Source: Fibrobacterales bacterium
Lineage (GTDB): Bacteria; Fibrobacterota; Fibrobacteria; Fibrobacterales; JAOPTW01
DNA length: 14,368 nucleotides
NCBI GenBank assembly: GCA_051532055.1
Contig: JAOPTX010000100.1
Coordinates: 1 to 14,368 of the forward strand
Reading direction: 5' to 3'
Made by a program: the position numbers and the translations under genes. Shown in pieces: positions 1 through 14,368 of the stretch (position 1 is its first letter; the number at the start of each line of letters is the position of its first letter). The notes beneath the pieces were generated by a model, which saw nothing but the letters and a program-made list of their open reading frames with translations, ran no database searches and had not been told where the DNA came from.

Positions 1-150
1 TGGACATAGGAATGGGCAGAGTATCTGTTTGGGAGACTGCATAGTTATGCAGGGAAGAAAATATTTTTGTAGAAGCCCCACCGTCCATGGTGGGGCTAGT
101 TTACTATATTCTATCTAGTCATACGTTAGCATAAACAATTATTGGGTACA

Positions 151-597
151 ATGACAAAAATAATTATTGGCATCTTTGGATTAAGTATTGTTATAGGGTT
201 TTTAATTCTACATAACTTTGATTTTTTGCTTAAAACAAATCAACTTCAAGTTATAGAGAATGGGCATGAACTGAACATAGAAGCATATCAAAGAGGAAAG
301 GACCAAATATTAATATTTTTGTACCCGACCAATGTCTTATCAAATATACTGTTAATCGATCACTCATCTAATATTATTTATAGCGTCAATCCGCCAAGAG
401 AATTTCTAGGAATCAAATTTTATAATTCGGACACGAAGTATCCAGGAATTAAAATAGATGATGGTGTAAAAATGGAAGGATGGGAATATAAATTCAAAAA
501 TAACGTATATAAAATAAAAAGTTTAGATTCCACTTTAAATGTACATGGTACCGCCAAAATCCCAATGAAAGAATATCGCCTCGAAATAAGGCTATAA
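151..597 (+). CDS. Hypothetical protein with N-terminal membrane anchor/signal
   Basis: ORF 142..597; ATG at 151 preferred over TTG 142; hydrophobic stretch IIIGIFGLSIVIGFLIL; no recognised domain. Confidence 0.7.
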   Translation: MTKIIIGIFGLSIVIGFLILHNFDFLLKTNQLQVIENGHELNIEAYQRGKDQILIFLYPTNVLSNILLIDHSSNIIYSVNPPREFLGIKFYNSDTKYPGIKIDDGVKMEGWEYKFKNNVYKIKSLDSTLNVHGTAKIPMKEYRLEIRL

Positions 598-703
598 AGC
601 ATACCAATAAATCAAATGGGTAAGTTCACGACCATTATCCAAGTGATAACAGAAAAGTTAAACATCTATTAAAAAACCTGTTTATAAGTAGGAATCTGGA
701 TGG

Positions 704-778
704 ATATAACGAAACGTTGGAGCGGTAATTGAAAAGAGTTATATTGTGGAATAAATTCCGCTCAACTAAAAGTTATTA
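704..778 (+). repeat. Classical-architecture attC site
   Basis: R'' ATATAAC(704-710), 5-nt spacer, GTTG[G]AGCGG[T]AATT(716-730) pairing with AATTCCGCTCAAC(754-766) with two unpaired bases, 5-nt spacer, R' GTTATTA(772-778). Confidence 0.65.
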
Positions 779-826
779 TGGAAGGCTTTGATATATTGAT
801 CCATTACCGTGACACAGAATAACTAT

Positions 827-1591
827 ATGAAAAATATTATAACCTTATTCTCCGTGATTATTTTACAAGCGTTTGTAGGATGTTCAGCGAGTAAGCCTTT
901 GAAGGAGACTAATGAGTATCATTTCACAGGTGATGTTAAGGATCTATTAGATACAACAGTAGCATATAAAACTAAAACGATTGAACCTATATACATTGAC
1001 GGTAAGTCACATACTTTTATATCACCTGAATTTCCTGATTATCAAAAAATAATGGGAAAAAAGATGAATAACCCTCGGCAGTTATTGTTGTCAAATTTGG
1101 ATTGCTGGTCAAAAGTATCGAGTGATGCCTCCTGTAGAACTGAGGTACTATTTTCAGATTCCTCAAAACAGATATTACAGATAATTAAACAAAAAAGCTT
1201 CCTGGGTTGGTTGCAGCCTGACGAAACTAAGCGAAAACCCAAGAGGATATTTGTTTTTAAAGAACCAGATCATAAATTATTCCATTCATTACCCTTCAAT
1301 GATGAGGCGCTTGTTACATATTTTAGAATGCGTTCTGATATTAAATCCATAACAACATTTAAAGAAGAGCCCCCCTCAATGGCCTCGATTGTTGTGGTGG
1401 GTATTATGGTTGCAACTCCTGCTTTTCTTGCTTCTATGGTCATAGAGTCAGTAGTGTATGCAATAGATAAAAATTATTCATGGAAACGAGTTGGGATATA
1501 CACTGGTAGTATGGTAGGTGGGGTAATGGGGCTCGGGCTCGTATTATGGACCGGTGAAATCTCAGTCAAAATTGTGAAAGTAGATTTCTAA
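827..1591 (+). CDS. Hypothetical lipoprotein with two C-terminal TM helices
   Basis: MKNIITLFSVIILQAFVG-C lipobox-like N-terminus from ATG 827 (ORF track starts at GTG 809); two hydrophobic segments near the C-terminus. Confidence 0.75.
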   Translation: MKNIITLFSVIILQAFVGCSASKPLKETNEYHFTGDVKDLLDTTVAYKTKTIEPIYIDGKSHTFISPEFPDYQKIMGKKMNNPRQLLLSNLDCWSKVSSDASCRTEVLFSDSSKQILQIIKQKSFLGWLQPDETKRKPKRIFVFKEPDHKLFHSLPFNDEALVTYFRMRSDIKSITTFKEEPPSMASIVVVGIMVATPAFLASMVIESVVYAIDKNYSWKRVGIYTGSMVGGVMGLGLVLWTGEISVKIVKVDF

Positions 1592-1689
1592 TAATATCTC
1601 CGCCGTCCCTGGCGGCGTTCGCTAAAAAAAAACATTTTCTTTTCTCCCAAATGGACATCATGCAAGGCATGCCCATTCCTACGATCCAC

Positions 1690-1755
1690 CAACAACAAAA
1701 GCACAAAACCTTTTTCCTAAATATGAAAAAGGCTTCGTACATTTTGTGAACGTTG
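1690..1755 (+). repeat. attC-like core site 1
   Basis: CAAC-aacaaaa-GCAC..CCTTTTTC-ctaaatat-GAAAAAGG..GTAC..CGTTG. Confidence 0.8.
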
Positions 1756-1804
1756 CAAGACATATTTTATTGGGGATTAAAAGTGAGATTATTTTTAAAT
1801 TTTA

Positions 1805-1833
1805 GGAACATTTCTAGATGAATAATCGTCTAA
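1805..1833 (+). promoter_or_regulatory. Putative ECF sigma promoter
   Basis: GGAAC-N17-CGTCTAA; same motif and spacing at 2995 and 7127. Confidence 0.65.
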
Positions 1834-1862
1834 CTAACAAATCAACTAATTTTGGATTATTA

Positions 1863-2813
1863 ATGAAATATTCTATTGGACTTACCTTAATCCTTTTCCT
1901 TTTAAATTGTGCCGAATCAACAAATAATAATGACTTAGTGCAAGAAGAAACGGAATCAATACAAGAAAATACAACCGCACTTTGTTCTGATGGATTAGAC
2001 AATAATCAAAATAATAAAATAGATTGTGAAGATTATAATTGCTTCAATATGACTGTATGTACTGATAAGTATAAGGATGGTCCATATTGTCAAAAGAACC
2101 CTGACTTGTGTGGTTATTTTTTGGACTCTCGTGACAGCAATGAGTATAAATGGGTGAACATTGGCTCACAAGTGTGGATGGGTGAAAATCTTGCATATAT
2201 TCCAGAAGTTTCACATGTACATATTGGTTCTGAGCTTAGTTCGGCAATGGACGATTCATATTATTATGTATATGATTTCCCTGAATATGATTCTTTAGGT
2301 GAACATTTTCATAATTATCAAGAGAGTCAATATTATTTGTCATTTGGTGTTTTGTATAATTGGAATGCTGCTATGAAAAAAGATTCAGCAAGTAACCTTG
2401 TTCCAAGTGGAGTTCAAGGAGTATGTCCTGATGATTGGCACTTGCCTTCTAAAGATGAATGGGATATTTTAGCAGAATATATAGATCAACAATTGGATAA
2501 TGTTGGGCCAATGAGTGATCAACCTGATAGGATTCATTGGGAGTATGTAGGCGGGTATTTGCAGGCACAGAGTGGGTGGCGAGATGACAATTTTGATAAA
2601 CCCGATTCAACAAGATTTGGATTTTCCGCTTTACCTTCCGGAGTGCGTTCAAATGCCCAATTTGATGGATACATGTATTTTGGATATTGGTGGACATCTA
2701 GTGAATTTTCAAAAGAAAGAGGTTGGTATAGGTTGTTGGCATCTAATGGTTATTTGCAATCTCCCTCTCGAGATAAAAGTTTAGGGATGTCGGTAAGGTG
2801 TTTAAAAAATTGA
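1863..2813 (+). CDS. FISUMP (Fibrobacter succinogenes major paralogous domain, Fib_succ_major) lipoprotein
   Basis: Motifs DSRDSNEYKWVNIGSQVWMGENL, GVLYNWNAAM, GVCPDDWHLPSKDEW, GFSALPSG, WWTSSE, GMSVRCLKN; lipobox LLN-C; Cys/Asp-rich CSDGLDNNQNNKIDCEDYNC motif; ATG 1863 preferred over 1818 because the putative promoter overlaps 1818. Confidence 0.9.
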   Translation: MKYSIGLTLILFLLNCAESTNNNDLVQEETESIQENTTALCSDGLDNNQNNKIDCEDYNCFNMTVCTDKYKDGPYCQKNPDLCGYFLDSRDSNEYKWVNIGSQVWMGENLAYIPEVSHVHIGSELSSAMDDSYYYVYDFPEYDSLGEHFHNYQESQYYLSFGVLYNWNAAMKKDSASNLVPSGVQGVCPDDWHLPSKDEWDILAEYIDQQLDNVGPMSDQPDRIHWEYVGGYLQAQSGWRDDNFDKPDSTRFGFSALPSGVRSNAQFDGYMYFGYWWTSSEFSKERGWYRLLASNGYLQSPSRDKSLGMSVRCLKN

Positions 2814-2858
2814 TAACTGAATAGTATCTAAATATAACCCCCAATAAAATACATCTTG

Positions 2859-2931
2859 CAACAGCCGAAGCACTCAAGCTTTTTTCTATGCACTGAAGTG
2901 CAAAAAGCCTGCGTACATTCGCCAAACGTTG
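2859..2931 (+). repeat. attC-like core site 2
   Basis: CAAC-agccgaa-GCAC...GTAC..CGTTG; 71/73 identical to site 3. Confidence 0.85.
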
Positions 2932-2994
2932 TAGTCAATTTAAAAAGGGGCCAGTAAGTGCCTTCGGCATTTATTGAATAAATTCTATTTTTGA

Positions 2995-3023
2995 GGCACA
3001 TTTTTTCTTTTATTTTCGTCTAA
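2995..3023 (+). promoter_or_regulatory. Putative ECF sigma promoter
   Basis: GGCAC-N17-CGTCTAA upstream of the lipoprotein gene. Confidence 0.6.
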
Positions 3024-3050
3024 TAGATGTGATATCAATTGGTGCCCAAT

Positions 3051-4193
3051 ATGTTTAAAATTTTAATACTTGTAGTTTATGTTTTTTTGCTCTGCTCTTG
3101 CTCATGGTTAATGGATGGGGATTCCTCTTCACCAATTGAAAGTAATTGGATTAAAGATAAAAATATTGATGGATATTCTAATGCGCAACTCAATAGTAGT
3201 ACCAGAAATGATACCCTATTCGTTGCAACTATAAATGATTACTATATCATGTCAATTGATTCTTTGTCAGATGGTTTTGAGGTGATAACACGATATACTA
3301 CTCATGATTATTTTGATATGGGGCAGAAGCCTACGATATCAAAAGACTATTTAATCAGGTTCAATGATCAGTCTTATTCCTTGCTTGATTCAAATGATGG
3401 TTTGTACAATCATATTCCACAACTTTATATAGAGGTTTCAAAGACCGAAGATTTATCTAGGCCTTCTAGCATGAAGTATCCAAGAGTTGATTCTCTTGAT
3501 TTTGGTGTTAACATTCAAGAATCTGAGTTTTACCCACAAGAACAATGCCTAATTTCAGGTGATCGAGGTGTGTTTTTTTATAGATATCTCGATACAATTG
3601 ATGAAAAAGAGGTGAATAACAACGTTGCTTTCTTTAGTATTACTCCAGATAAAAATCGTAATTGGTTACCCAATATTTCGATTGATAGCACAATGAGTTT
3701 AGGACAAAGACACTTAAATATTACAAGCCTAAATACTATTGATGGATACTTTTATTTTAGTAGCAGAGAAGTGTTTGTTATAATTTCGCCAAATAATATT
3801 GTTACAATACAAGAAATTAATTCTAATGATGACATCATATTTGATGTTATTAAAGATCCATTTGGTTCAAAATTGTTTAGAATACACGAAAATAAAATTA
3901 TGGAATCCACTGATATGGGATATAGTTGGATTGAAAAGTATTCCGTTTCACATTTTTACAGTACGATGCACTATGTTCAAATTGATTCAAAAATTATTGG
4001 TTATTCAATGAATCAAATATTTGAAATTGTTATGGGAGATGATGGTGTCATCGTTAATGAAATTAACAATGAGGGCATCGGACAAACTCAAATTACTTCC
4101 ATTAGTAATGTTAATGATGAAATGATTTATCTCACGACCACAAGTGGTGGTTATTATAGAAAAATGGAAGATTTTTTTGAGTATAAAGAATAG
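3051..4193 (+). CDS. Hypothetical lipoprotein, probably beta-rich/propeller-like
   Basis: MFKILILVVYVFLLCS-C lipobox from ATG 3051; one Asp-box-like STDMGYSW; the TAG stop lies inside the cassette's right inverted arm. Confidence 0.8.
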   Translation: MFKILILVVYVFLLCSCSWLMDGDSSSPIESNWIKDKNIDGYSNAQLNSSTRNDTLFVATINDYYIMSIDSLSDGFEVITRYTTHDYFDMGQKPTISKDYLIRFNDQSYSLLDSNDGLYNHIPQLYIEVSKTEDLSRPSSMKYPRVDSLDFGVNIQESEFYPQEQCLISGDRGVFFYRYLDTIDEKEVNNNVAFFSITPDKNRNWLPNISIDSTMSLGQRHLNITSLNTIDGYFYFSSREVFVIISPNNIVTIQEINSNDDIIFDVIKDPFGSKLFRIHENKIMESTDMGYSWIEKYSVSHFYSTMHYVQIDSKIIGYSMNQIFEIVMGDDGVIVNEINNEGIGQTQITSISNVNDEMIYLTTTSGGYYRKMEDFFEYKE

Positions 4194-4212
4194 CCCCTTT
4201 TTAAACTGACTA

Positions 4213-4285
4213 CAACAGCCGAAGCACGCAAGCTTTTTTCTATGCACTGAAGTGCAAAAAGCCTGCGTACATTCGCCAAGCGTTG
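4213..4285 (+). repeat. attC-like core site 3
   Basis: Near-identical to site 2. Confidence 0.85.
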
Positions 4286-4538
4286 TAGAACATTATGCAA
4301 GACATCACATCATACTATGTAAATAGATAGAGAAGTAATACCCGGCTCATGAATTAAATATTACCGGCCACGAAAGCGGCAATCGTCCTAATTGCCACAG
4401 GTAAATTATTTTTAAAATAAAGAAGTATTTGAGAATTATGATTTATAGTAGTTGTAAATTCTTTGTAAATAAAAGAGGCTGCAATGATTCTACTTTGCTA
4501 AAAAATTACATTTGTCCTTTATTAAAATGAAGGTTTAC

Positions 4539-6245
4539 ATGAAGATAAAACTCTTAATTATACTAGTACTAGCCTTACTTTCATTTGCTTTTTCAGAGAC
4601 AAGAACTGTTCTTTGTTTTAAAGACAATATCAGTACTCAGGATAATGTTTGTAATAATAATGATTCACTACTAAGTGCCGTTGCAAAATCAGGTAATTAC
4701 GATTACGTAATAATAGGTAATGGTGTATGGAAAGACCTTGCAATAAATATCAACACATATTACTTGAGGTTTTTGGCTGAGGAAACAGGTAAAGTTTTTT
4801 TTACTGGTCAATCAAGTATTATTGTTAATGCAAAAAAAGTTGAAATAAGAGGTATTACCTTTAAAGATGGAGGATTGCCTCCTGGTAGTGAGTCTATAAT
4901 AAAGCTTTCTGGTGGGAGCAATGAATCAACTATAGAAGATTGTGTGATTTCATACTATAACCCAGAAGATCCTATGACAGAGTATGATTGGATCCACATT
5001 GGTAAAGGTAATAATAACAAAATCAGAAACAATATTTTTGAAGGTAAAAATCACAAAGGAACTCTTATAGAAGTAAGACATAGATTGTGCCTACAGTCTT
5101 CAGAAGCTTGTAATATACCAGTATTTATTAAAGAAGGTATAGTTGATAATCAATTATATGAGAATACAACAATGTATTATCCTAGTAATACGGGGAATAA
5201 TATTATTGAAAAAAATACTTTTATAGATTGTATTAAAGGAAATGATAATAGCAATGGATATGAAATAATTCGTATTGGTTTAGATGTTGAGCAACAAATA
5301 ATATCAAACAATATTGTTAGAATGAATTTATTTGAAAATATTTTAATGGAAGATGAAATAATTTCTAGCAAATCTACTGGCAATAAATATCTCAATAATG
5401 TTTTCAAAAATTGTAGAGGTGGTTTGTCCCTAAGACATGGGAATGATAATGTTGTAATGGGAAATGTGTTCATGCGAGGAAATGAATTTAATGATAATAT
5501 GTCTGGACTATTTATAATGGGGGAAGGACATATCGTAGTAAATAATTATTTTCAGGGGCTCAATGGCAATGCAATTCAGATAAGGTATGGAGATAAAGAT
5601 GTCTATTCCAATTCGTCTAATGGTTTTGCATTTGTAAAAGATTTAATTTTAAGTTTTAATACTTTTGTTGATTGTAGCAGGTACTTTTATTTTTATCAGC
5701 ATGAAAAACAATTATTATCTCCCACGGAAGCGAACATATCTCACAATATCTTTCAAACAGGTACAGAATTACAAGATTTGTTTTTAGTAACTAATACGGG
5801 AGATTGGAACTCACCAGAACAAAAGTATGATAGAACATCATCTAAGGATATAAATGAAATTCCTGATGTTTTTTGGAATAAGAATATATGGGCATCGACA
5901 TATCAAGAAAATGAACTGATGGTTAATAACTATATAGGCAGTGTTTTATATCTCTCCAAAGATGATCTCTATAAACCTAAACATGAATTAAGTAATTTGT
6001 TACTTGAAATAGATTTGCCTGAAAACCTAAAGTCAATTATGAAAAATGATTTATATGGGGGATTGCGTTCTAATGAATTGATGACAATTGGAGCTATTGA
6101 AGTTATGGAAACGACACAACATGACCCCAATTATACTTTGGATGAATTGATGTCTTTACCTTTGCTTTTTAGGCCAAATTCAAGAATGCTAAATAGTTCG
6201 ATGAATACAAATTACTTAATGCCAATAATTTCAATACTAAAATAA
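4539..6245 (+). CDS. Secreted polysaccharide lyase family 6 (chondroitinase B / alginate lyase-like beta-helix)
   Basis: PL6 motifs NGYEIIRIG, EDEIISSKS (catalytic Lys position), GGLSLRHG (catalytic Arg position), GHIVVNNYF; signal peptide from ATG 4539 with GAAGG upstream; substrate not determinable. Confidence 0.85.
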   Translation: MKIKLLIILVLALLSFAFSETRTVLCFKDNISTQDNVCNNNDSLLSAVAKSGNYDYVIIGNGVWKDLAININTYYLRFLAEETGKVFFTGQSSIIVNAKKVEIRGITFKDGGLPPGSESIIKLSGGSNESTIEDCVISYYNPEDPMTEYDWIHIGKGNNNKIRNNIFEGKNHKGTLIEVRHRLCLQSSEACNIPVFIKEGIVDNQLYENTTMYYPSNTGNNIIEKNTFIDCIKGNDNSNGYEIIRIGLDVEQQIISNNIVRMNLFENILMEDEIISSKSTGNKYLNNVFKNCRGGLSLRHGNDNVVMGNVFMRGNEFNDNMSGLFIMGEGHIVVNNYFQGLNGNAIQIRYGDKDVYSNSSNGFAFVKDLILSFNTFVDCSRYFYFYQHEKQLLSPTEANISHNIFQTGTELQDLFLVTNTGDWNSPEQKYDRTSSKDINEIPDVFWNKNIWASTYQENELMVNNYIGSVLYLSKDDLYKPKHELSNLLLEIDLPENLKSIMKNDLYGGLRSNELMTIGAIEVMETTQHDPNYTLDELMSLPLLFRPNSRMLNSSMNTNYLMPIISILK

Positions 6246-6256
6246 TAAGGATGAAT

Positions 6257-6598
6257 ATGAATATTAAAAATTTAATGTTTTTTGTTTTGTTTTCGATAGC
6301 CACTACGTTTGCTGGTTATACTTGGACTCAAACAACAAGACCAGTTATGATTCAAGGTGATTGGTATGGTACAGGGCTCTATATACAAACAGAGAATGGA
6401 CATAATGTTTTTTTAAAACATTCAGATTTTGATTCAAAAATGTTAAATGTCTATCATACAATGTTGCTCATGGCACAAAGTGGTCAAATAAATCTCACAA
6501 TTCAATATAGAACAGATGTTACAACCTCCTATTCACCTTATGGTGTTGTGTTACCTTTTGGTCATATAAAGCAAATTCGTTCAATGAATATTAATTAG
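6257..6598 (+). CDS. Small secreted hypothetical protein, second gene of the PL6 cassette
   Basis: Signal peptide ending TFA; TAAGGA RBS directly after the PL6 stop; ATG 6257 (alternative 6251). Confidence 0.75.
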   Translation: MNIKNLMFFVLFSIATTFAGYTWTQTTRPVMIQGDWYGTGLYIQTENGHNVFLKHSDFDSKMLNVYHTMLLMAQSGQINLTIQYRTDVTTSYSPYGVVLPFGHIKQIRSMNIN

Positions 6599-6863
6599 TT
6601 ATCTCTATTCTTACCGAAAGATTAAGGACTTCACAATAATATTATTATATAAATAGGGCAGTTTCTAAGAGCAAGTCTCGGTGCGAACCACAATACGGTT
6701 TTCTATTAAGATGTTGTCTTTGGAATAACCCTAATTTAAGTTTTGTTTCATGATTCTATCAACTTCCGCTATCCTGCTACAGTTGATGTGGCCGGAAAGA
6801 GTTTAAAGCCGGGCGCTATAAAAGTACTGCATTGGTAGGGAAAAGTCTTGCATAACGATTCTA

Positions 6864-7042
6864 CAACAGGGTGAGCAGGCAATTACCGTGTCGTAAGTGA
6901 ACTGCATTCGATCGGTCGCTAAAGCTCCTCGCTCTCATGCAACCCAAGCAGAGCTTGGGAGTTCACTAACTCCACTTTTTTATCCAAAATCGTAAAGACC
7001 GATTTTGGATAAAAATAACTGCCTACTGGCACCCAAACGTTG
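6864..7042 (+). repeat. attC-like core site 4 (long, multibranched)
   Basis: CAAC-agggtga-GCAGGCAATTA...TAACTGCCTAC..CGTTG enclosing several internal hairpins. Confidence 0.8.
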
Positions 7043-7126
7043 TTTAAAATATTCGATTGTTAAAAAGAATAGAAAAAAGCTAAATTTAAAGAAATATTCA
7101 ATAATATCAGTTTTATTTAAAATCTG

Positions 7127-7155
7127 GTAACATTTTTAAAACTTTAATCGTCTAA
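7127..7155 (+). promoter_or_regulatory. Putative ECF sigma promoter
   Basis: GTAAC-N17-CGTCTAA, followed by AGGAG RBS and ATG 7185. Confidence 0.65.
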
Positions 7156-7184
7156 GTATATAAAGATCTAAGCAGGAGCTTAAT

Positions 7185-9986
7185 ATGAAAATAATAATTA
7201 TGGCCTTTCTATTGTTAACAATGCCATTGTTTTGGGGATGTGATTTATTTAAATCCAGTAAATCAACTGAAAACCTACCACCTGAGCTTACCATTTATTC
7301 AGATACAACATTAAGTGTAAATGATAGCATCAACCTTTCAGTACAGCTTACTGATGAGGATTCTGCCAGCGTGGAATATATTTGGCAAATTGACGAACTA
7401 AACATGCTTGATACATTATTTGAAAATAATATTTTAGTTGCATTTCCAAAAACTGGAACATATGATGTTATTATCACGGCAATTGATAATAAGGGCAGCC
7501 TTTCAGATCCCGATACATTGAAGGTAACCATTTTTTCATCAATGCCCTCTGTTCAAATTTCAACTACACCAGCTCGTCACCCTGTAAATGACACTCTTAA
7601 ATTTACTGTTACAGCCACCGATACAGACGGTAAAGTCATCGATTATTTGTGGTCTTTTGATAATAATCAATTTAATGTGACAAAAGAACCAATGTTTAAA
7701 GCAATATGGAGCTCAGAAGAGTTTGGTAGTAAAACTCTATATGTAAAAGTCATTGATGATGATAGCTTAACATCACTTGTTGATTCTATATCGTTTGAAA
7801 TCGCCAAATTGCAACCACAGTTAAATCTATCAGCAGACACTTCAATTTTTGTTAATGATTCAATTTCATTTAATGCTAATGCTATCGATTCTAATGGAAC
7901 GGTGGTTAAACACCTTTGGTCTTTTGATAATATAACATGGGATACTACATCAATGGCATCTTTAACCAAAGCATGGCCTATTAATGATTATGGGATTAAA
8001 ATACTATATGCTAAAGTAATAGATGATGACGGCATCGAGTCATCAGTTGATTCTACTAGAATTGAAGTTCTTTTATCAGCGCCAATAGTCAAATCAATGA
8101 GTGATACTTCAATTTTCGTAAATGACTCTATAAACCTTAATGTATCTGCTACAGATGTAAATGGGACAATATTTAAATACCTTTGGTCATTTGACAACGT
8201 AACATGGGATACTACATCAAATGCAACGTTGACCAAAGCATGGGTCATTAACGACTATGGCAATAAAACAATGTATGTAAAAGTGATTGATGATGATGGT
8301 GTTGGATCCACTATAGACTCTACCAAAATAAATGTTACTCTTTCTGCACCTGTTCTTATAGCAATGAATGATACTATAGTGGCAGTAAATGATTCGATAC
8401 TATTTACTGCGTTAGCAACAGATAACAATGGTAATATTATAAATTATTTATGGTCTTTGGATAGTGGCAAATCGTATGCATCCACAATGGAAGGAGCATA
8501 CAAATATATTTGGCCAATTAATGAATATGGTTCAAAATTAATTTTGGTTAAGGCTATGGATGATGATAATGTAGAATCTAATGTTGATACTATTGTTGTC
8601 ACAGTTAATCAATGCCTTCCCGAAGTACAGGCAATAAATTTACAAGGTCAAATCAGCGATACAATAATAAGCATAAATGATTCAATATATATTGGTATAT
8701 CGGCAACAGACTCGAATGGCCAAATATCCAAATATTACTGGGATTTCAATGCAGATGGCTGGGATGATAGTACAAGTAATACTGGTTCGTTAAGTCGTTA
8801 TTTAAAATGGCCTGCTGGTGGAAATGTAAAAGTAGTTGTAGGCGCTTTGGATGATGATGGATTAATTGGTTTAGATACATTTAATGTTTTGTTTAATAGA
8901 CCACCAACATCATGTGACTTGAATACCAATTTTAATCCTGACAAAGGTGGCTGGAGTAATTTTAATTATACTTCGGATAATGGTAGCATTCAAGTTTCTT
9001 TTACAGGTGTTGATCCTGATGGGGGTTTTGATGTCCTGAGTTATGATTTTTATTGGGGACTTGATTCAAATGGTATGACTCAAAAATCTATTGGAATGAA
9101 TGGCACTGTTTCCATCACAGATATAGAAGTTCAAACTACTTATTATTGGAAAGTTATTGCTAGAGATTTGTATGGAGATAGCACTGTGCAGACTGGTTTA
9201 TTTAGTCCCATTGATTACCCACTAGATGGAATATTTTGGAACAATACAACTGGAACGCCAAACTTTACTAGTAACTTTGATGGTCAGGTTACTACTTTTT
9301 CTCATGATGGCCAAATGTGGTTAATTGCAGCTAAGACTTACAATAACACCTCAAATATGATTTATAACTCTGCTGATGGTATCAATTGGGTCAAAGTTAC
9401 CGGAACACCAAACTTTACTAGTAACTTTGATGGTCAAGTTACAGCTTTTTCTCATGATGGCCAAATGTGGTTAGTTGCAGCTAAGACTTACAGTAACACA
9501 TCGAATATGATTTTTAAATCTGCTGATGGTATCAATTGGGTCAAAGTTACCGGAACACCAAACTTTACTAGTAACTTTGATGGTCAAGTTACAGCTTTTT
9601 CTCATGATGGCCAAATGTGGTTAGTTGCAGCTGAGACTTACAGTAACACATCGAATATGATTTTTAAATCTACTGATGGCATCAATTGGGTTAAAGTTAC
9701 CGGAACACCAAACTTTGCTAGTAATTTTGATGGTCAAGTTACAGCTTTTTCTCATGATGGCCAAATGTGGTTAGTTGCAGCTGAGACTTACAATAACACA
9801 TCGAATATGATTTATAAATCTACTAATGGTATCAATTGGGTTAAAGTTACTGGAACACCAAACTTCACTAGTAACTTTGATGGTCAAGTTGCAGCTTTTT
9901 CTCATGATGGCCAAATGTGGTTAGTTGCAGCTAAGACTTATAGCAATACATCGAATACTATCCACAAATCCGGAAGAAATAATTAA
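7185..9986 (+). CDS. Large lipoprotein: about 6 PKD/Ig-like domains, an FN3-like domain and a C-terminal repeat beta-propeller
   Basis: Lipobox FWG-C; repeated NDSI..A.D.NG....Y.WSFD..KVIDDDG units of about 89 aa; YYWKVIARD; five 50-aa repeats with Asp-box-like SxDGINW. Confidence 0.85.
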   Translation: MKIIIMAFLLLTMPLFWGCDLFKSSKSTENLPPELTIYSDTTLSVNDSINLSVQLTDEDSASVEYIWQIDELNMLDTLFENNILVAFPKTGTYDVIITAIDNKGSLSDPDTLKVTIFSSMPSVQISTTPARHPVNDTLKFTVTATDTDGKVIDYLWSFDNNQFNVTKEPMFKAIWSSEEFGSKTLYVKVIDDDSLTSLVDSISFEIAKLQPQLNLSADTSIFVNDSISFNANAIDSNGTVVKHLWSFDNITWDTTSMASLTKAWPINDYGIKILYAKVIDDDGIESSVDSTRIEVLLSAPIVKSMSDTSIFVNDSINLNVSATDVNGTIFKYLWSFDNVTWDTTSNATLTKAWVINDYGNKTMYVKVIDDDGVGSTIDSTKINVTLSAPVLIAMNDTIVAVNDSILFTALATDNNGNIINYLWSLDSGKSYASTMEGAYKYIWPINEYGSKLILVKAMDDDNVESNVDTIVVTVNQCLPEVQAINLQGQISDTIISINDSIYIGISATDSNGQISKYYWDFNADGWDDSTSNTGSLSRYLKWPAGGNVKVVVGALDDDGLIGLDTFNVLFNRPPTSCDLNTNFNPDKGGWSNFNYTSDNGSIQVSFTGVDPDGGFDVLSYDFYWGLDSNGMTQKSIGMNGTVSITDIEVQTTYYWKVIARDLYGDSTVQTGLFSPIDYPLDGIFWNNTTGTPNFTSNFDGQVTTFSHDGQMWLIAAKTYNNTSNMIYNSADGINWVKVTGTPNFTSNFDGQVTAFSHDGQMWLVAAKTYSNTSNMIFKSADGINWVKVTGTPNFTSNFDGQVTAFSHDGQMWLVAAETYSNTSNMIFKSTDGINWVKVTGTPNFASNFDGQVTAFSHDGQMWLVAAETYNNTSNMIYKSTNGINWVKVTGTPNFTSNFDGQVAAFSHDGQMWLVAAKTYSNTSNTIHKSGRNN
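9249..9972 (+). repeat. Intragenic tandem repeat, 150 bp x about 5
   Basis: AACTT..CTAGTAA.TTTGATGGTCA recurs at 9261, 9411, 9561, 9711, 9861. Confidence 0.95.
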
Positions 9987-10043
9987 TACTATGATGTTTT
10001 ATTAAATTAATTAAAGCCTATTTTAACAATCGAATACTTCAAA

Positions 10044-10110
10044 CAACACGAAAAGGCAGCAATAAATTTCCGTAAATATGAAATTCACAGCTGCCGTTTT
10101 CGGAACGTTG
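10044..10110 (+). repeat. attC-like core site 5
   Basis: CAAC-aCGAAAA-GGCAGC...GCTGCC-g-TTTTCG-gaa-CGTTG; same subfamily as site 8. Confidence 0.85.
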
Positions 10111-10398
10111 TAAGACATTGGCACACAATCTAGAGGGGCCGTGTGGGCTAAAATTTAAAAAATTATAATCACAGCTCTGGCAGTTCGTTGCATTTTTTAA
10201 AGCCCACCTGACAAGTAGACTGAATCACTGGGCTTTCATATTACATGACATTGCTTTCCTTTTAATTTGAAAGCAATACTCGCTTTGCTCGTGTCATGCA
10301 ATATTCAGCCCTTTAAGTAGCTCACCCTCCCTGAATGTGTAGTTTAGTCAGGTGTAGTGGCTATTTGCCCCTCTAGCTTTGCACCAACGTCTTACAAC
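10107..10398. other. ORF-less, highly structured cassette (candidate ncRNA or ssDNA fold-back)
   Basis: 292 bp between sites 5 and 6, no ORF of 60 aa or more, nested inverted repeats throughout. Confidence 0.75.
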
Positions 10399-10457
10399 AA
10401 CCGTAGCACGCAATAGTTTCTTTTAATATGAAACTACTGCGTACTCCGGCCACGTTG
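10395..10457 (+). repeat. attC-like core site 6
   Basis: CAAC-aaccgta-GCACGCAATAGTTTC-ttttaatat-GAAACTACTGCGTAC..CGTTG. Confidence 0.85.
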
Positions 10458-10558
10458 CAAGACATGTTTTCGGTTTGTGGAGGATTACTAATGTGGCCCT
10501 CAATTATTTTTGTGATATTTCTACCTTTTAATGGTATTAATTCAGTCGGCTAGTTTTA

Positions 10559-11929
10559 ATGAGTATTTTAAAATGTTTTTTCTTGGTGTTAACTTCTGTT
10601 CTTTTGATAAGTTGTTCAAAGGGTTTTGTTAATTCTAATCGAGCAACGGATTCAAGCCCAAAACCTTATTTGAAAGAAGCATACATATTATATCACATGG
10701 GCGTTCAAAATATTGGAGATGCATCAAGACGAGATAGTGATTACTTAAAGCTTATATCTGAATCATTTGGTATCAGTAAAGAGCTGGCAATATTGTATCT
10801 AAAAAAAGTTGAAATTTCGACCCCAAAACAGCGAACAAAGAAATGTTTATACTATCTACAAGAGTCTTTGAAAGAACTTTCTGTAATCAAAAAACAAAAT
10901 CGACAAAAATTTTTTGTAATAAATGTTTTGAACCCATACTTTAGTTTATTGATAAATAATGTTGCAATTCCAAATGCTTTTCATAAAAACATAGCACACC
11001 TAATACCACAATATTTAAGTGGTAAAAATGCAAAAAATGAGTTTAAGAAGTTAGTGAGAATGACAATTGCCTTCGATAGTTTTAAAGAAGTTGATGTTTC
11101 TATAGTAGATAACTTTAATGTGTCGTTACACGAAATTGGTTATCATATGTTCTATAATTTAGATAACCCTTTAGCACATGTTTTTGAAATAAACTCAACC
11201 TTACTTGACAAACAAAAATGGAGTAATAAGAGCGAAACGATCACAATATACATGTTGAAACGTATTGCCCCAAATCTGTTACCTGATCTTCAAGGGTTTT
11301 CATTGTTAGGTACGAAAGAAGTATTTGTTATATCAGATTTCTTTCCATTGCTTGCAGAAGCCTATTTACAAGAACGTACAAACAAATTAACTCCTGGAGA
11401 TGCCTTTGTTGATAAGAAAAATGAGGAGGTTTGGAAAGAATTAAGTATCGACTTAACAATAGAAAATGCAAACTCAATTCTTGAAAGATTAACAAAGAAA
11501 GATTTTTCCAAAACACCCAAAGATAGTATCGTATTAAGATTGGCTTATGCTGTTGCCATACATGAGGCTAAGCATAAAGCTGATGAATATGAAACGGATA
11601 AAATATTATATAGTGTTGATTTTGAGCTTTCAGCATATTTGGCTCAAATACTATATAGTGATACACCGTTTCATTCTTTACGTATGGCATTGTCTTACTT
11701 TGAAAACATGTATGAAGCTTCTGAGGTTGAAATATACTTACCAATTATGAAAAAATTGTGGAATGTGGCTATAAAAACAGCTGAGCCAGATGTGACAACT
11801 GATATAATTAAAAAAGAGGTGTTAAAGATTTACGAAGCCCATAGAATATACTCTGGTGGTTATAGGTTTCCAAAATTGAACAGCTTTAAGAAAAAAGTTG
11901 TTCCTTTTATAAAAAAAGATTTTATGTAA
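10559..11929 (+). CDS. Lipoprotein with HExxH zinc-metallopeptidase-like motif
   Basis: Lipobox LIS-C; AVAIHEAKHKAD followed by DFELSAY (possible third ligand Glu). Confidence 0.75.
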   Translation: MSILKCFFLVLTSVLLISCSKGFVNSNRATDSSPKPYLKEAYILYHMGVQNIGDASRRDSDYLKLISESFGISKELAILYLKKVEISTPKQRTKKCLYYLQESLKELSVIKKQNRQKFFVINVLNPYFSLLINNVAIPNAFHKNIAHLIPQYLSGKNAKNEFKKLVRMTIAFDSFKEVDVSIVDNFNVSLHEIGYHMFYNLDNPLAHVFEINSTLLDKQKWSNKSETITIYMLKRIAPNLLPDLQGFSLLGTKEVFVISDFFPLLAEAYLQERTNKLTPGDAFVDKKNEEVWKELSIDLTIENANSILERLTKKDFSKTPKDSIVLRLAYAVAIHEAKHKADEYETDKILYSVDFELSAYLAQILYSDTPFHSLRMALSYFENMYEASEVEIYLPIMKKLWNVAIKTAEPDVTTDIIKKEVLKIYEAHRIYSGGYRFPKLNSFKKKVVPFIKKDFM

Positions 11930-11991
11930 AGTGCTAAATAATATGGGATTAGCACCTAATCCATCCCCCACAAACCAAAAACACGATCTTG

Positions 11992-12057
11992 CAACAGCGG
12001 TAGCAGTCAATTATTTTCCATAAAGATGAAAATAACTGCCAACTCCCACAAACGTTG
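11992..12057 (+). repeat. attC-like core site 7
   Basis: CAAC-agcggta-GCAGTCAATTATTTTC-cataaagat-GAAAATAACTGCCAAC..CGTTG. Confidence 0.85.
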
Positions 12058-12141
12058 TGTAAAATAGTATCCTTTTTTTAAAAATTCTATAAAATGTTTA
12101 TGGATTATCTAGATGAAGGCTGGTTTGATATGACAATTTCG

Positions 12142-12169
12142 TTGCTTTTACCTTACGGAATGATATAAT
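12142..12169 (+). promoter_or_regulatory. Putative sigma70 promoter with extended -10
   Basis: TTGCTT-N16-TATAAT with TGn preceding the -10 (TGATATAAT), 32 bp upstream of the MCP ATG. Confidence 0.55.
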
Positions 12170-12201
12170 AGTAGACACTAAATTTCCAAGATGAGATTCA
12201 T

Positions 12202-14202
12202 ATGAAAAGTATAAAAAAATCATTGATGGCAAAAATTCTTGTGCTGGCATTAGCATCTGGAGCTGTTCCTATTGTTGTTATCGTTGTGTTTTCGATAGTC
12301 AATATAACTGATAGCATGTTACATCAGATTGGTGAAAATTTGCGTGACAACGCAGAGATGGTTGGAAGTAATATTGATGATTTTTTTGATCAGCGAGAGA
12401 ATGATGCGCGGGTAATATCTCAAGCAAATGTACTCGAGTCTGCCGATGCAATTGTTCAACAAGGTTATTTTGACGATATTATAGATGCAAACCCTAACAT
12501 TACCGGTATTAATGTGATTAGTTCTGATGGGGTAGTATTTTCAAGTAATGGTGACCAGAATAAGGTAGGGGCAACCCTCAAATCATTTAAGCCTGACCTT
12601 GTGCCACTGTATAAGGATGCGCTATCTGCTAAGCAGGGAGATGTTCTTTTTGGAAAAGTACATATTGAACAATCAACTCTTTCGATGTATATGATTACCC
12701 CAGTTACCGATGATTCAAATATCAATGTAATTTCGGTAATTGTAATTGCAATTAATATGCAGCCAATTATTGAAAGTATTGCGCTCTTTAATGAAAATGT
12801 AATTGGTGATGAGTTTGTGTATTTGCTTAATGATGATGGAGAAGTTATTGTAACGGGTGACTCTGAACAAAAGTTATTTACAACGTTTAATGATTTAACC
12901 CACAAGCCAGATGTGCTTGATGCGACAGATGAGGATGGCTCAAAGGATTTCTTGATATATGAAAATTTTAGAGACATTGAGGTTATTGCAGGAATGGCTG
13001 ACATGAGAGCACATGGAGTTAATAATGGTCTCGATTGGGGAATTGTTGCAGTAGCTGAAACAAGTGCTATTGCGCAGCCAGCCTATACATTAAGAAATTA
13101 TCTGCTGCTCATTGCTATTATAGTCCTTGGTATAATAGCAATCATTGCAGTTATAATATCAAGAGCAATAATTGCACCGTTAAATAATGTAAACAAAGGG
13201 TTGCAAGATATTGCTGAAGGCGAAGGGGACCTTACGAAAAGATTAAAGTCTACAACAAACGATGAAATTGGTGAACTTACAGACTGGTTTAACCAAGTGA
13301 TGGAAAAAATTAGAGTAATCATTAAGCAAAACAAAGATAGTGTTAATTCTATAAAAGACTCGTCATCAAATCAAAATGAGGCCGTAACCTCTGTTTCAAA
13401 TGCAACTAATTCCATGACAGAGAAGTCACGAAAAATTGCCCATGATTCTGATTCAGCTACAACTAATATTAATGATATTTCTGAGAATACTGCTCACCTT
13501 AATGCAAATATTTCTACTGTAGCATCGGCAGTAGAGGAGATGAGTACTACGACGAATGAAATAGCACAAAACTGCCAACAAGAGCTTAAAATTGCGGGAG
13601 ATGCGAGTAAAATGGCTCAAGATGCAAATAAAACAATGGAAACAATGAAGCTTTCCGCCGATAAAATAGGTAAAGTTCTCGATACCATAAAAGATATTGC
13701 AGACCAGACGAATCTTTTGGCGCTGAATGCTACAATTGAGGCAGCATCAGCAGGGGATGCTGGAAAAGGTTTTGCTGTGGTAGCAAGTGAGGTTAAAGAG
13801 CTTGCTAAACAGACATCTCAGGCAGTTGATGATATTGCCTCTCAGGTTGCTACTATGCATACAAGTACTAATGATTCTGTAAAGTCAATTGAATCCGTAT
13901 CAACAATTATTGAAGAGGTTAATGTGATTTCTCAGACAATTGTAAGTGCTATTGAAGAACAATCAGCGACGATTAATGAAATTGCCGGAAACATTTCTAA
14001 CCTAAATCAAACAAGTAGTAATGTTGCCGATAATATTAGTGAGTCAGCAAATTATATCGCAAGTATTAATAAAGATGTATCTGCATTTAGCCAGGAGGTT
14101 GATGCAATAACTGATAATATGAGTGAGATAAAAAACAACTCAGATGATCTTACAAGTATTTCAAATGAGTTACATGCCTCTGTCGGTAAATTTATCGTTT
14201 GA
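12202..14202 (+). CDS. Methyl-accepting chemotaxis protein (TM, Cache-like sensor, TM, HAMP, MCP signalling domain)
   Basis: [37 protein letters not shown] hairpin tip; [24 protein letters not shown]; two TM helices. Confidence 0.95.
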
Positions 14203-14275
14203 ATTAAGACATTAATCGAGGACGGGGTTAATGGGTTATTTAGAATTCTATCATACGATCCTCAGCTACTTCACA

Positions 14276-14342
14276 CAACACGAAAAGGCATCAATAATTC
14301 CCCAGAAAGATGGGAATTTCAGCTGCCGTTTTCGGGACGTTG
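14276..14342 (+). repeat. attC-like core site 8
   Basis: CAAC-aCGAAAA-GGCATC...GCTGCC-g-TTTTCG-gga-CGTTG. Confidence 0.85.
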
Positions 14343-14368
14343 TAGGTAATAGGTAGGGATTGGGTAGT

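Follow-up and report, generated by a model that had tools for sequence, protein, structure and literature searches.

The window analyzed here, a stretch of 14,368 nt from a marine Fibrobacterales bacterium (contig JAOPTX010000100.1, assembly GCA_051532055.1), is filled by a run of co-oriented cassettes that are bounded at G|TT and carry an attC site at their 3' ends. The main open reading frames (ORFs) of the window all lie on one strand, and the cargo ranges from a chondroitinase-B-like gene to a cassette with no ORF at all (Table 1). We read each unit as having the order G|TT, left arm, cargo, right arm, attC core, G, in which the two arms would be a matched pair. An Rfam search of the window returned a single chance-level match to a microRNA family (E value, 0.035).

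Table 1. Cassettes, arms, and attC sites of the window. The arm score is the anchored GTT.../...AAC extension score of a cassette's own two ends.
Feature	Positions	Strand	Arm match	Arm score	Description
Cassette 0	1..1693	+			Arm family LA0/RA0; left arm cut by contig start, right arm ends at 1693; ORFs 142-597 and 809-1591
Second-type attC in cassette 0	704..778	+			R box TAAC/GTTA; shares its family with the attC sites flanking the canonical IntI (contig C108)
attC site 0	1687..1758	-			Core 1694-1751; bottom strand folds; R1 78.4 bits bottom vs 14.5 top
Cassette 1	1752..2862	+	24/27	20.5	Arms 1752-1779 and 2835-2862; ORF 1818-2813 with Fib_succ_major domain
attC site 1	2856..2934	-			Core 2863-2927
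Cassette 2	2928..4216	+	24/26	21.5	Arms 2928-2951 and 4193-4216; ORF 3039-4193
attC site 2	4210..4288	-			Core 4217-4281
Cassette 3	4282..6867	+	22/23, 1 bulge	17	Arms 4282-4303 and 6845-6867, 1-nt bulge; ORFs 4512-6245 (chondroitinase-B-like) and 6251-6598
attC site 3, long	6861..7045	-			Core 6868-7038, 171 nt, branched tip
Cassette 4	7039..10047	+	25/27	22	Arms 7039-7065 and 10021-10047; ORF 7185-9986 with PKD repeats
attC site 4	10041..10113	-			Core 10048-10106
Cassette 5	10107..10398	+	33/32, 1 gap	19.5	ORF-less; arms 10107-10139 and 10367-10398; second copy on contig C89
attC site 5	10392..10460	-			Core 10399-10453
Cassette 6	10454..11995	+	27/28, 1 bulge	22	Arms 10454-10485 and 11963-11995, 1-nt bulge; ORF 10559-11929
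attC site 6	11989..12060	-			Core 11996-12053
Cassette 7	12054..14279	+	12/14	9	Short arms only, 12054-12067 and 14266-14279; ORF 12202-14202, methyl-accepting chemotaxis protein
attC site 7	14273..14345	-			Core 14280-14338
Cassette 8, left arm	14339..14368	+			Right arm on contig C83

An earlier note on this DNA had described every cassette as bracketed by its own long, cassette-specific terminal inverted repeat. All seven of the coordinate pairs that it gave align as described, and an inverted-repeat search of the window placed three of the seven among its six longest repeats (I1, I2, and I6). The own-end pairs score 17 to 22 in six cases and 9 in the seventh, compared with a maximum of 9.5 and a median of 5 for the 42 non-own combinations, which bears out the claim that the arms differ between cassettes. 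The two flanks of any one core are, as the note had also held, barely complementary: the six adjacent RA_N/LA_N+1 combinations score 4 to 7.5. Pair 7 (14 nt), taken alone, is not above chance. Arms are likewise present on the flanking units, cassettes 0 and 8, both of which are cut by contig ends; the left arm of cassette 8 matches its right arm on another contig with a score of 18. The second-type attC site inside cassette 0 has no matched ends.

Three energy-based attC finders proved too insensitive or too noisy and were replaced by an anchored scan for end complementarity; a chain search at a threshold of 8 gave mostly noise. Over the whole genome (5.17 Mb), the anchored scan yielded 95 matches scoring at least 13, of which 24, after filtering, adjoin an attC core. 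Matches without a core scored mostly 13 to 14.5, and the handful at 16 or above lie in repeated genes. Across the 25 unique cassettes of the genome, the arms are 14 to 33 nt long (median, 23). The baseline against which such lengths had been set, end complementarity of only 6 to 7 bp in classical cassettes, is too low: Bouvier et al. (2009; PMC2727003), in the part of that paper available to us, give 9 to 11 consecutive self-complementary nucleotides for most cassettes, and our control arrays beside true IntIs show end pairing of 10 to 13 nt, with 12 the commonest length. Our literature search turned up nothing on arms exceeding 11 nt, on a mismatch at position 11, or on arrays headed by recombinases lacking the IntI insertion.

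The imperfections within the arms follow a fixed pattern. At position 11, all 25 cassettes have A in the left arm and C in the right arm; this gives an A.C mismatch on the top strand and, on the bottom strand alone, a T.G wobble (the A/G-at-11 signature). Of the 51 arm mismatches, 44 fall into the A>G and C>T classes and 1 runs in the opposite direction, and a T bulge occurs at position 9 in 4 of the 25 cassettes. Judged from sequence, this wobble bias shows a folding preference for the bottom strand, which would presumably also be the strand that recombines. The polarity is the same in 25 of 25 cassettes: relative to the coding strand, the arm that carries the A is the 5' one. This uniformity, together with the single orientation of the main ORFs in the window and the constant position of the arms next to attC cores, makes it very improbable that the inverted repeats are sites at which a tyrosine invertase flips genes on and off, a reading suggested by inverted repeats around single genes with a tyrosine recombinase nearby. 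Cassettes of one arm family share end modules of about 25 to 125 nt around unrelated cargo (for example, cassettes of 3,852 and 1,487 nt), which would fit small transposons or MITEs with terminal inverted repeats. That origin is the least probable that we weighed: the ends vary between units and covary within a unit, they always start with GTT and finish with AAC, every end seen adjoins an attC core or an att-like start site directly, and neither a transposase nor, among the ends seen, a target-site duplication was evident.

The cores themselves are hairpins of the canonical attC type, with the bottom strand folding best. They fold as imperfect hairpins with an R box of AAC/GTT, an unpaired spacer, bulged bases, and a variable tip, and 13 of the 24 pairs in their consensus show compensatory changes. 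An attC model built for these sites, R1, scores 47 to 82 bits on the bottom strand and 10 to 28 bits on the top strand; it has no matches in class 1 plasmid loci and is therefore lineage specific. Because the cores are canonical attC hairpins, the arms can be read as prolonging the R-box stem outward, with the crossover at G|TT dividing them. The same result rules out one sense of the earlier suggestion of a distinct cassette system, that of an unrelated system; what we see is a variant integron-type system.

The terminal inverted repeats would thus be two matching halves that prolong the R-box stem outward, with the G|TT strand-exchange point between them. Excision of a cassette as a circle would join its right arm, core, and left arm without interruption, and the bottom strand could fold into one long hairpin whose tip is an ordinary attC site (R box, unpaired spacer, single-base bulges, and stem) and whose base is a further helix of 14 to 33 bp with the fixed T.G wobble at position 11 and often a second wobble or one-base bulge at positions 8 to 10. 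Within the array, each core is flanked by arms of two different cassettes, and therefore only about 4 to 7 bp of the R box can pair there. Folding energies agree with the proposal that the arms lengthen the hairpin in the predicted circle: they form a continuous stem worth an extra 15 to 26 kcal/mol in six of seven cassettes, cassette 7 gaining only 5 kcal/mol. Predicted circle junctions reach -36 to -64 kcal/mol on the bottom strand in six cassettes (-21.8 kcal/mol in cassette 7), compared with -13 to -48 kcal/mol for array junctions, and the bottom strand is more stable than the top in every fold compared. At array starts, the sequences form no closed attC hairpin when folded. An outer stem of this kind would make the circle site far readier to fold than the array sites, favoring capture and stabilizing the array.

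The arms might instead act in the array, pairing across the cargo on a single-stranded bottom strand and bringing the cores together for precise excision, or might pair as RNA. Duplexes of 27 bp are stable enough to form across 0.3 to 3 kb of single-stranded DNA, the wobble bias would reflect selection on one folded strand in this case too, and the observed boundaries are compatible with it. Nothing separates such looping from pairing in the circle, and both may hold, but a left arm paired with its distant right arm takes the R' half away from the upstream core; for RNA, the favored strand is antisense to the genes, which makes a role in mRNA unlikely. Overall we regard arms acting in the array as rather improbable.

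Movement of the units as blocks bounded at G|TT, which the earlier note had proposed, is borne out by the 292-nt ORF-less cassette, which recurs on contig C89 at 98.6% identity. The C89 copy has the same downstream core and a different upstream core. No recombination event, circle junction, or empty site was seen in two sequencing runs of one sample, both at contig level, and RNA coverage was sparse. The joints in those runs all match paralogous copies; the joint 7036>10105, for example, is the arrangement present on C89. Site types also mix, in that second-type attC sites, the kind found beside IntI, are nested inside cassettes of the first type, to which the arrays described here belong, and one enzyme might accordingly serve both.

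A search for a tyrosine recombinase at the array ends, as the earlier note had advised, identified P0123, encoded on the minus strand of contig C46 (14354-15448), where 185 nt separate it from an array whose first left arm is at 15634 and whose start site lies at about 15560-15640. P0123 scores 230 bits against NF040815 (cutoff, 220) and lacks the IntI insertion. The sister species (G001) has the same arrangement of recombinase and array, with a homologue 56% identical to P0123. This is the only homologue above 40% identity among 296 genomes of the phylum, and among 61 related genomes searched, first-type sites occur only in G000 and G001. P0123 is a single-copy gene, and at least six further array starts in the genome have no adjoining recombinase. 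The genome also encodes a canonical IntI, P0001 (372 bits; cutoff, 265), on contig C108, where it is flanked by the other attC type with 10-nt arms. An IntI with the insertion is thus not found beside a first-type array; the true IntI lies on another contig of a fragmented assembly, and a physical link is possible. IntI scores above the cutoff in 53 of the 296 genomes. The IntI-adjacent regions of G001, G002, G229, and G234 contain no clear arrays, and 20 such regions from other genomes of the phylum yielded no signature pair and one chance-like match. The cores keep the bulged bases that in the classical system are recognized through the insertion missing from P0123, a feature that counts against this enzyme.

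We compared 78 classified loci, of which 19 encode an insertion-less recombinase and 59 a true IntI. A/G-at-11 pairs number 17 beside insertion-less recombinases (9 of 19 loci; the other 10 lack the signature) versus 3 beside true IntIs (2 of 59 loci), while perfect 12-nt pairs show the reverse distribution, with 2 and 45, respectively. Among recombinases resembling P0123 (34 to 38% identity), 4 of 10 loci head arrays with arms of 18 to 27 nt and the same signature. In L169 to L172 the insertion-less recombinase lies directly beside the first cassette, and polarity relative to the genes agrees in the three loci in which it was checked (L169, L170, and L100). In a recombinase tree, no single supported clade unites the insertion-less enzymes that have signature arrays, and P0123 groups weakly (83/81) near host Xer proteins. 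The recombinase N termini are unrelated. A HARP-like N-terminal domain was detected only below threshold, in L099, L103, and L108 (14 to 17 bits; cutoff, 25), and is absent from P0123, L169, and L170. This distribution supports an association, drawn from sequence comparison, of the long-arm design with recombinases that lack the hallmark IntI segment.

The same data bear on the possibility that this is an ordinary integron in which P0001 recombines the sites, the long arms being a lineage-specific elaboration of the 9- to 11-nt pairing and P0123 being adjacent by chance or having an accessory or resolving role. The cores have every canonical attC feature, a full IntI is encoded in the genome, the site types are nested, most array starts lack an adjoining recombinase, and pairing beyond 7 nt is already in print (in the same part of PMC2727003). 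We nevertheless consider it unlikely, since P0001 itself is flanked by the other attC type, the position-11 signature is nearly absent from true-IntI loci and recurs at insertion-less and P0123-like loci, and first-type sites occur only together with a close P0123 homologue.

We favor, with a probability of roughly 60%, a sedentary chromosomal array of integron-type cassettes in which the arms are a split outer R-box stem and the acting enzyme would be the Xer-like P0123, which heads such an array without an IntI-specific insertion, rather than a canonical IntI. The A.C (top)/T.G (bottom) asymmetry at position 11 would then mark the recombining strand. Synteny and the cross-locus comparison lend weight to the earlier suggestion of a distinct system with its own recombinase. 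Whether the design amounts to a second widespread gene-capture system beside the classical integron is evenly balanced in our estimation. Such a system would span Fibrobacterota, Bacteroidota, Bacillota, and Spirochaetota, use insertion-less Xer-like recombinases, an R arm with T.G at position 11, and a cassette-specific outer stem present only in the circle, and here coexist and exchange parts with a canonical integron.

Two tenets of integron biology are that the extra domain of IntI is indispensable for recombining folded attC sites and that cassette ends pair over about 7 to 11 nt, and the phyla concerned are thought to be integron poor. An alternative and coherent design recurs across these phyla in arrays that standard tools would class as degraded CALINs. 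If the insertion-less enzymes are active, gene-cassette capture would be far more widespread than cataloged, strand choice could be set by wobble rather than by bulged bases, and the split outer stem would by itself set a stable array apart from a highly foldable circle, an asymmetry that is potentially useful in structure-specific recombination tools.

The closest known systems are the sedentary chromosomal integrons, such as the Vibrio superintegron (Bouvier et al. 2009, PMC2727003, as far as the available part of that paper goes; Nivina et al. 2016, PMC5027507). They and the present arrays both have co-oriented cassettes, imperfect hairpins with an AAC/GTT R box, an unpaired spacer, and bulged bases, a best-folding bottom strand, a G|TT boundary, a core that travels with the upstream cargo, and self-complementary ends. 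In sedentary integrons, however, the self-pairing published in that part covers 9 to 11 nt (versus 14 to 33 nt, with a median of 23, here) and position 11 is a Watson-Crick pair (versus an invariant A.C/T.G here); end modules of about 25 to 125 nt common to unrelated cargos and an adjoining recombinase without the IntI insertion are also peculiar to the arrays described here. Standard annotation would probably call the window a CALIN, a cluster of attC sites with no integron integrase (IntegronFinder; PMC9024848). CALINs as outlined there share attC arrays without an adjoining IntI and are read, in the section concerned, as degraded integrons. Unlike them, the present arrays begin at a conserved site adjoining a conserved Xer-like recombinase, an arrangement seen in two species and in four other genomes of the phylum. 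Insertion-less members are included in the "integron-like" subgroup of tyrosine recombinases (Smyshlyaev et al. 2021; PMC8138268), for which the available portion of that paper describes no cassette array or site architecture. Finally, the pdif modules of Acinetobacter plasmids (PMC7399989) resemble these cassettes in that genes lie between inverted sites recognized by Xer-type (XerC/D) recombinases; as presented in the part of that work at hand, pdif sites are double-stranded, 28-bp, dif-like sequences common to modules, whereas here the repeats are cassette-specific halves of what would be a folded hairpin.

The long, cassette-specific arms of the window, which begin with GTTG on the left and end with CAAC on the right, are a real feature. 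Alignment agreed with the earlier note on all seven arm pairs, three of which are among the six longest inverted repeats returned by a repeat search of the window. Scored by extension anchored at GTT.../...AAC, the seven cassettes gave own-pair values of 20.5, 21.5, 17, 22, 19.5, 22, and 9. All 42 non-own arm combinations scored 9.5 or less (median, 5), including 4 to 7.5 for the six that join a right arm to the next left arm, so six pairs (17 to 22) lie far above chance. The seventh pair (14 nt, score 9), taken alone, is no better than chance. Arms are also present in the two flanking units, cassette 8 and cassette 0, the latter truncated by the contig start. The window is one whole 14,368-bp contig of a 5.17-Mb genome (G000) in 181 contigs; the end of contig C89 precedes and overlaps its first position, contigs of run X1 connect a core to that position, and its last cassette runs on into contig C83. 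All main ORFs are on the plus strand, and the cargo is unrelated: a Fib_succ_major lipoprotein, a chondroitinase-B-like protein, a PKD-repeat protein whose ORF ends in about six tandem copies of a ~120-nt (40-amino-acid) repeat, a chemoreceptor, and several proteins without a family.

Coordinates of features in the window and in loci used for comparison (C, contigs of G000; L, fetched loci; G001, sister species)
Feature	Location	Remark
Cassette 8	left arm, window 14339-14368; right arm, C83	pair score 18
Cassette-0 family members	window 1-1693; C72 21670-22809; C136 111-1624	
292-nt cassette	window 10107-10398; C89 8030-8321	98.6% identity
171-nt attC core	window 6868-7038; C89 7859-8029	starts AGGGTGAGCA
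PKD-repeat ORF	window 7185-9986	repeats at 9240-9960
Assembly link to C89	window 1-20	
Array-start motif	C46 15616-15633; C47 65244-65261; C72 19822-19839; C115 11212-11229; C3 near 136083; G001 L026, L027, L029	TTGCGTACTnnTnTA or TTGCTGACACAAmTA
P0002 (third IntI-like gene)	C44 9986-11188 (L002 1189-2394)	401 aa

The cores between these cassettes (first-type attC sites) resemble established attC sites. In all eight cores of the window, the bottom strand folds as a classical attC hairpin with a 4- to 5-bp R box, CAAC(G)/(T)GTTG, a 3-nt unpaired spacer, single-base bulges, a stem, and a loop, and the top strand is always less stable. Compensatory changes occur in 13 of the 24 consensus pairs in an alignment of seven cores. 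A covariance model built on this alignment gave 47 to 82 bits for the bottom strand versus 10 to 28 for the top and detected 35 sites in the genome (E < 1e-5). These folds and bottom-strand scores indicate a system of the integron kind, in which the arms are the R-box stem continued outward. A 171-nt core with a branched tip recurs on C89 behind different cassettes.

A genome-wide scan yielded 95 end pairs scoring at least 13, with an attC core adjoining 24; these 24 and the weak seventh pair of the window form a set of 25 unique cassettes, with arms of 14 to 33 nt (median, 23). With positions counted from the G of GTT and the right arm read as its reverse complement, all 25 cassettes have A at position 11 of the left arm and G at position 11 of the right. 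On the top strand this A/G signature reads as an A.C mismatch and on the bottom as a T.G wobble. Changes of A>G or C>T account for 44 of the 51 mismatches and the reverse direction for only 1, a polarity that is still 19 to 1 without position 11. Further wobbles are concentrated at positions 8 to 10, and position 9 has a single bulged T in four cassettes. Since the arms vary in sequence between cassettes while pairing is kept, they covary, and the wobble polarity shows that selection acts on the folded bottom strand. We modeled the circle junction by joining a cassette's own right arm, core, and own left arm. For six cassettes the bottom strand was predicted to fold as a single continuous hairpin of -36 to -64 kcal/mol, consistent with the earlier proposal that the arms lengthen the att hairpin in an excised circle; the predicted value for cassette 7 was -21.8 kcal/mol. 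Array junctions gave -13 to -48 kcal/mol, the gain of circle over array being 15 to 26 kcal/mol in the six cassettes and 5 in cassette 7, and a junction with a foreign left arm folded like the array form. Neither circle junctions nor empty sites were seen in contig-level sequence runs of one sample, a result that counts against the reading proposed below.

The limits of the mobile unit are indicated by a 292-nt cassette present in two copies. The downstream core is the same in both, and the upstream core and next cassette differ, which places the unit from the TT of the left arm through the G after the core and agrees with the suggestion that units move as blocks with crossover near G|TT. This cassette contains no ORF of 50 amino acids or more, and an Rfam search matched no family. 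Members of arm families share only ~25 to 125 nt per end, with unrelated cargo between (cassettes of 3852 and 1487 nt in one example); viewed as a circle, the two ends make up a single conserved element, at most ~300 nt long and centered on the crossover. In the cassette-0 family, conservation is limited to the ends and an internal attC, in the order ~120-nt end module, variable gene, short second-type attC (core of 43 to 62 nt), second variable gene, and ~100-nt end module, with one GC-rich hairpin in each end module.

The arms are best interpreted as the two halves of the outer stem of an attC-type site in an integron-like system whose likely enzyme would lack the IntI-specific insertion. 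The canonical IntI of the genome (P0001, contig C108; 372 bits versus a cut-off of 265) has the insertion, and its neighboring sites are the second attC type (TAAC/GTTA, ~108 nt) with 10-nt arms. P0123, a single-copy tyrosine recombinase of 364 amino acids on C46, lacks the insertion, scores 230 bits versus the NF040815 cut-off of 220, and is separated by 185 nt from the first left arm in a first-type array that terminates in a fixed flank. The search for a tyrosine recombinase at array ends that the earlier note proposed thus found one heading a first-type array, and the same arrangement occurs in the sister species (56% identity). Counting against this reading, at least six more array starts have a related start motif and no adjoining recombinase, and the second-type attC is conserved inside the first-type cassette-0 family, so that the two site types mix and one enzyme might serve both. 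The motif stands right before the first GTTG at several array starts, forms no closed attC hairpin, and is adjoined by a recombinase at only one start. A third IntI-like gene, P0002, keeps the insertion, falls short of the 265-bit cut-off at 194 bits, and has GQ where GH is usual before the catalytic tyrosine; its neighborhood comprises housekeeping-looking genes with no attC match nearby.

Among 61 related genomes, only G000 and its sister species yielded first-type sites, and P0123 homologues of >40% identity were found only in the sister species among 296 genomes of the phylum, 53 of which have an IntI above the cut-off. Of 80 loci fetched by IntI alignment, 78 were classifiable, the insertion being present in 59 and absent from 19. 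The signature occurred in 17 pairs at 9 of 19 loci without the insertion (Bacteroidota, Bacillota, Spirochaetota, and one unclassified bacterium) versus 3 pairs at 2 of 59 loci with it; perfect 12-nt pairs numbered 2 versus 45, and other position-11 mismatches 3 versus 6. Ten extended loci with P0123-like recombinases (34 to 38% identity, same phylum) included four heading arrays with 18- to 27-nt arms and the signature. In the three arrays with ORFs checked (L169, L170, and L100), the arm located 5' on the coding strand carries the A of position 11, the polarity seen in the window. Twenty regions next to an IntI in other genomes from the phylum held no signature pair save one chance-like match. 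A recombinase tree split IntIs from insertion-less enzymes with support of 100/100. Several results weigh against the reading of the arms given above: 10 of the 19 insertion-less loci lack the signature, the tree does not unite signature-associated enzymes and places P0123 weakly near host Xer proteins, and a HARP-like N-terminal domain gives no more than sub-threshold scores in L099, L103, and L108 and is absent from P0123. An N-terminal motif, RW...K.W.IP, is common to the insertion-less recombinases of L099, L100, L103, L104, L107, L108, and L110 (Bacteroidota, Bacillota, and Spirochaetota), is doubled in L103, L104, and L110, and gives only sub-threshold HARP matches; P0123, L169, and L170 have an N-terminal extension of another kind.

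Known integrons supply the baseline for arm length. The figure of only 6 to 7 bp given earlier for self-pairing of classical cassettes is too low: the portion consulted of Bouvier et al. 2009 (PMC2727003) reports 9 to 11 consecutive nt in most cassettes, and our controls gave 10 to 13 nt. Ends pair over 12 nt in the class 1 cassettes aadB and aadA2, over 12 nt with one mismatch in catB8, and over 10 to 13 nt in chained cassettes of true-IntI loci, as in ten consecutive cassettes of L078 (12 nt in eight, 11 nt in one, and 13 nt in one). Across the 59 true-IntI loci (L038 to L116), pairing stops sharply at 12 nt, slightly more than the printed range. Work by Hall in 1991, Stokes in 1997, and Partridge in 2009 may also be relevant to this baseline. 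Full-text literature, with older subscription papers outside it, yielded no description of arms of >11 nt, of a mismatch at position 11, or of an insertion-less recombinase at the head of an array, and all three are absent from the portions consulted of PMC5027507, PMC5737381, PMC11641012, PMC3053210, PMC8138268, PMC9024848, PMC2727003, and a preprint on archaeal integrons (10.1101/2022.02.06.479319). Long end complementarity, which would have made the arms unremarkable if routine in integron cassettes, was not so in the controls; together with the published range, they indicate that arms of 22 to 33 nt are not routine. The mobile unit, which starts at the left-arm TT and takes in the core and the following G, has the same limits as in integrons.
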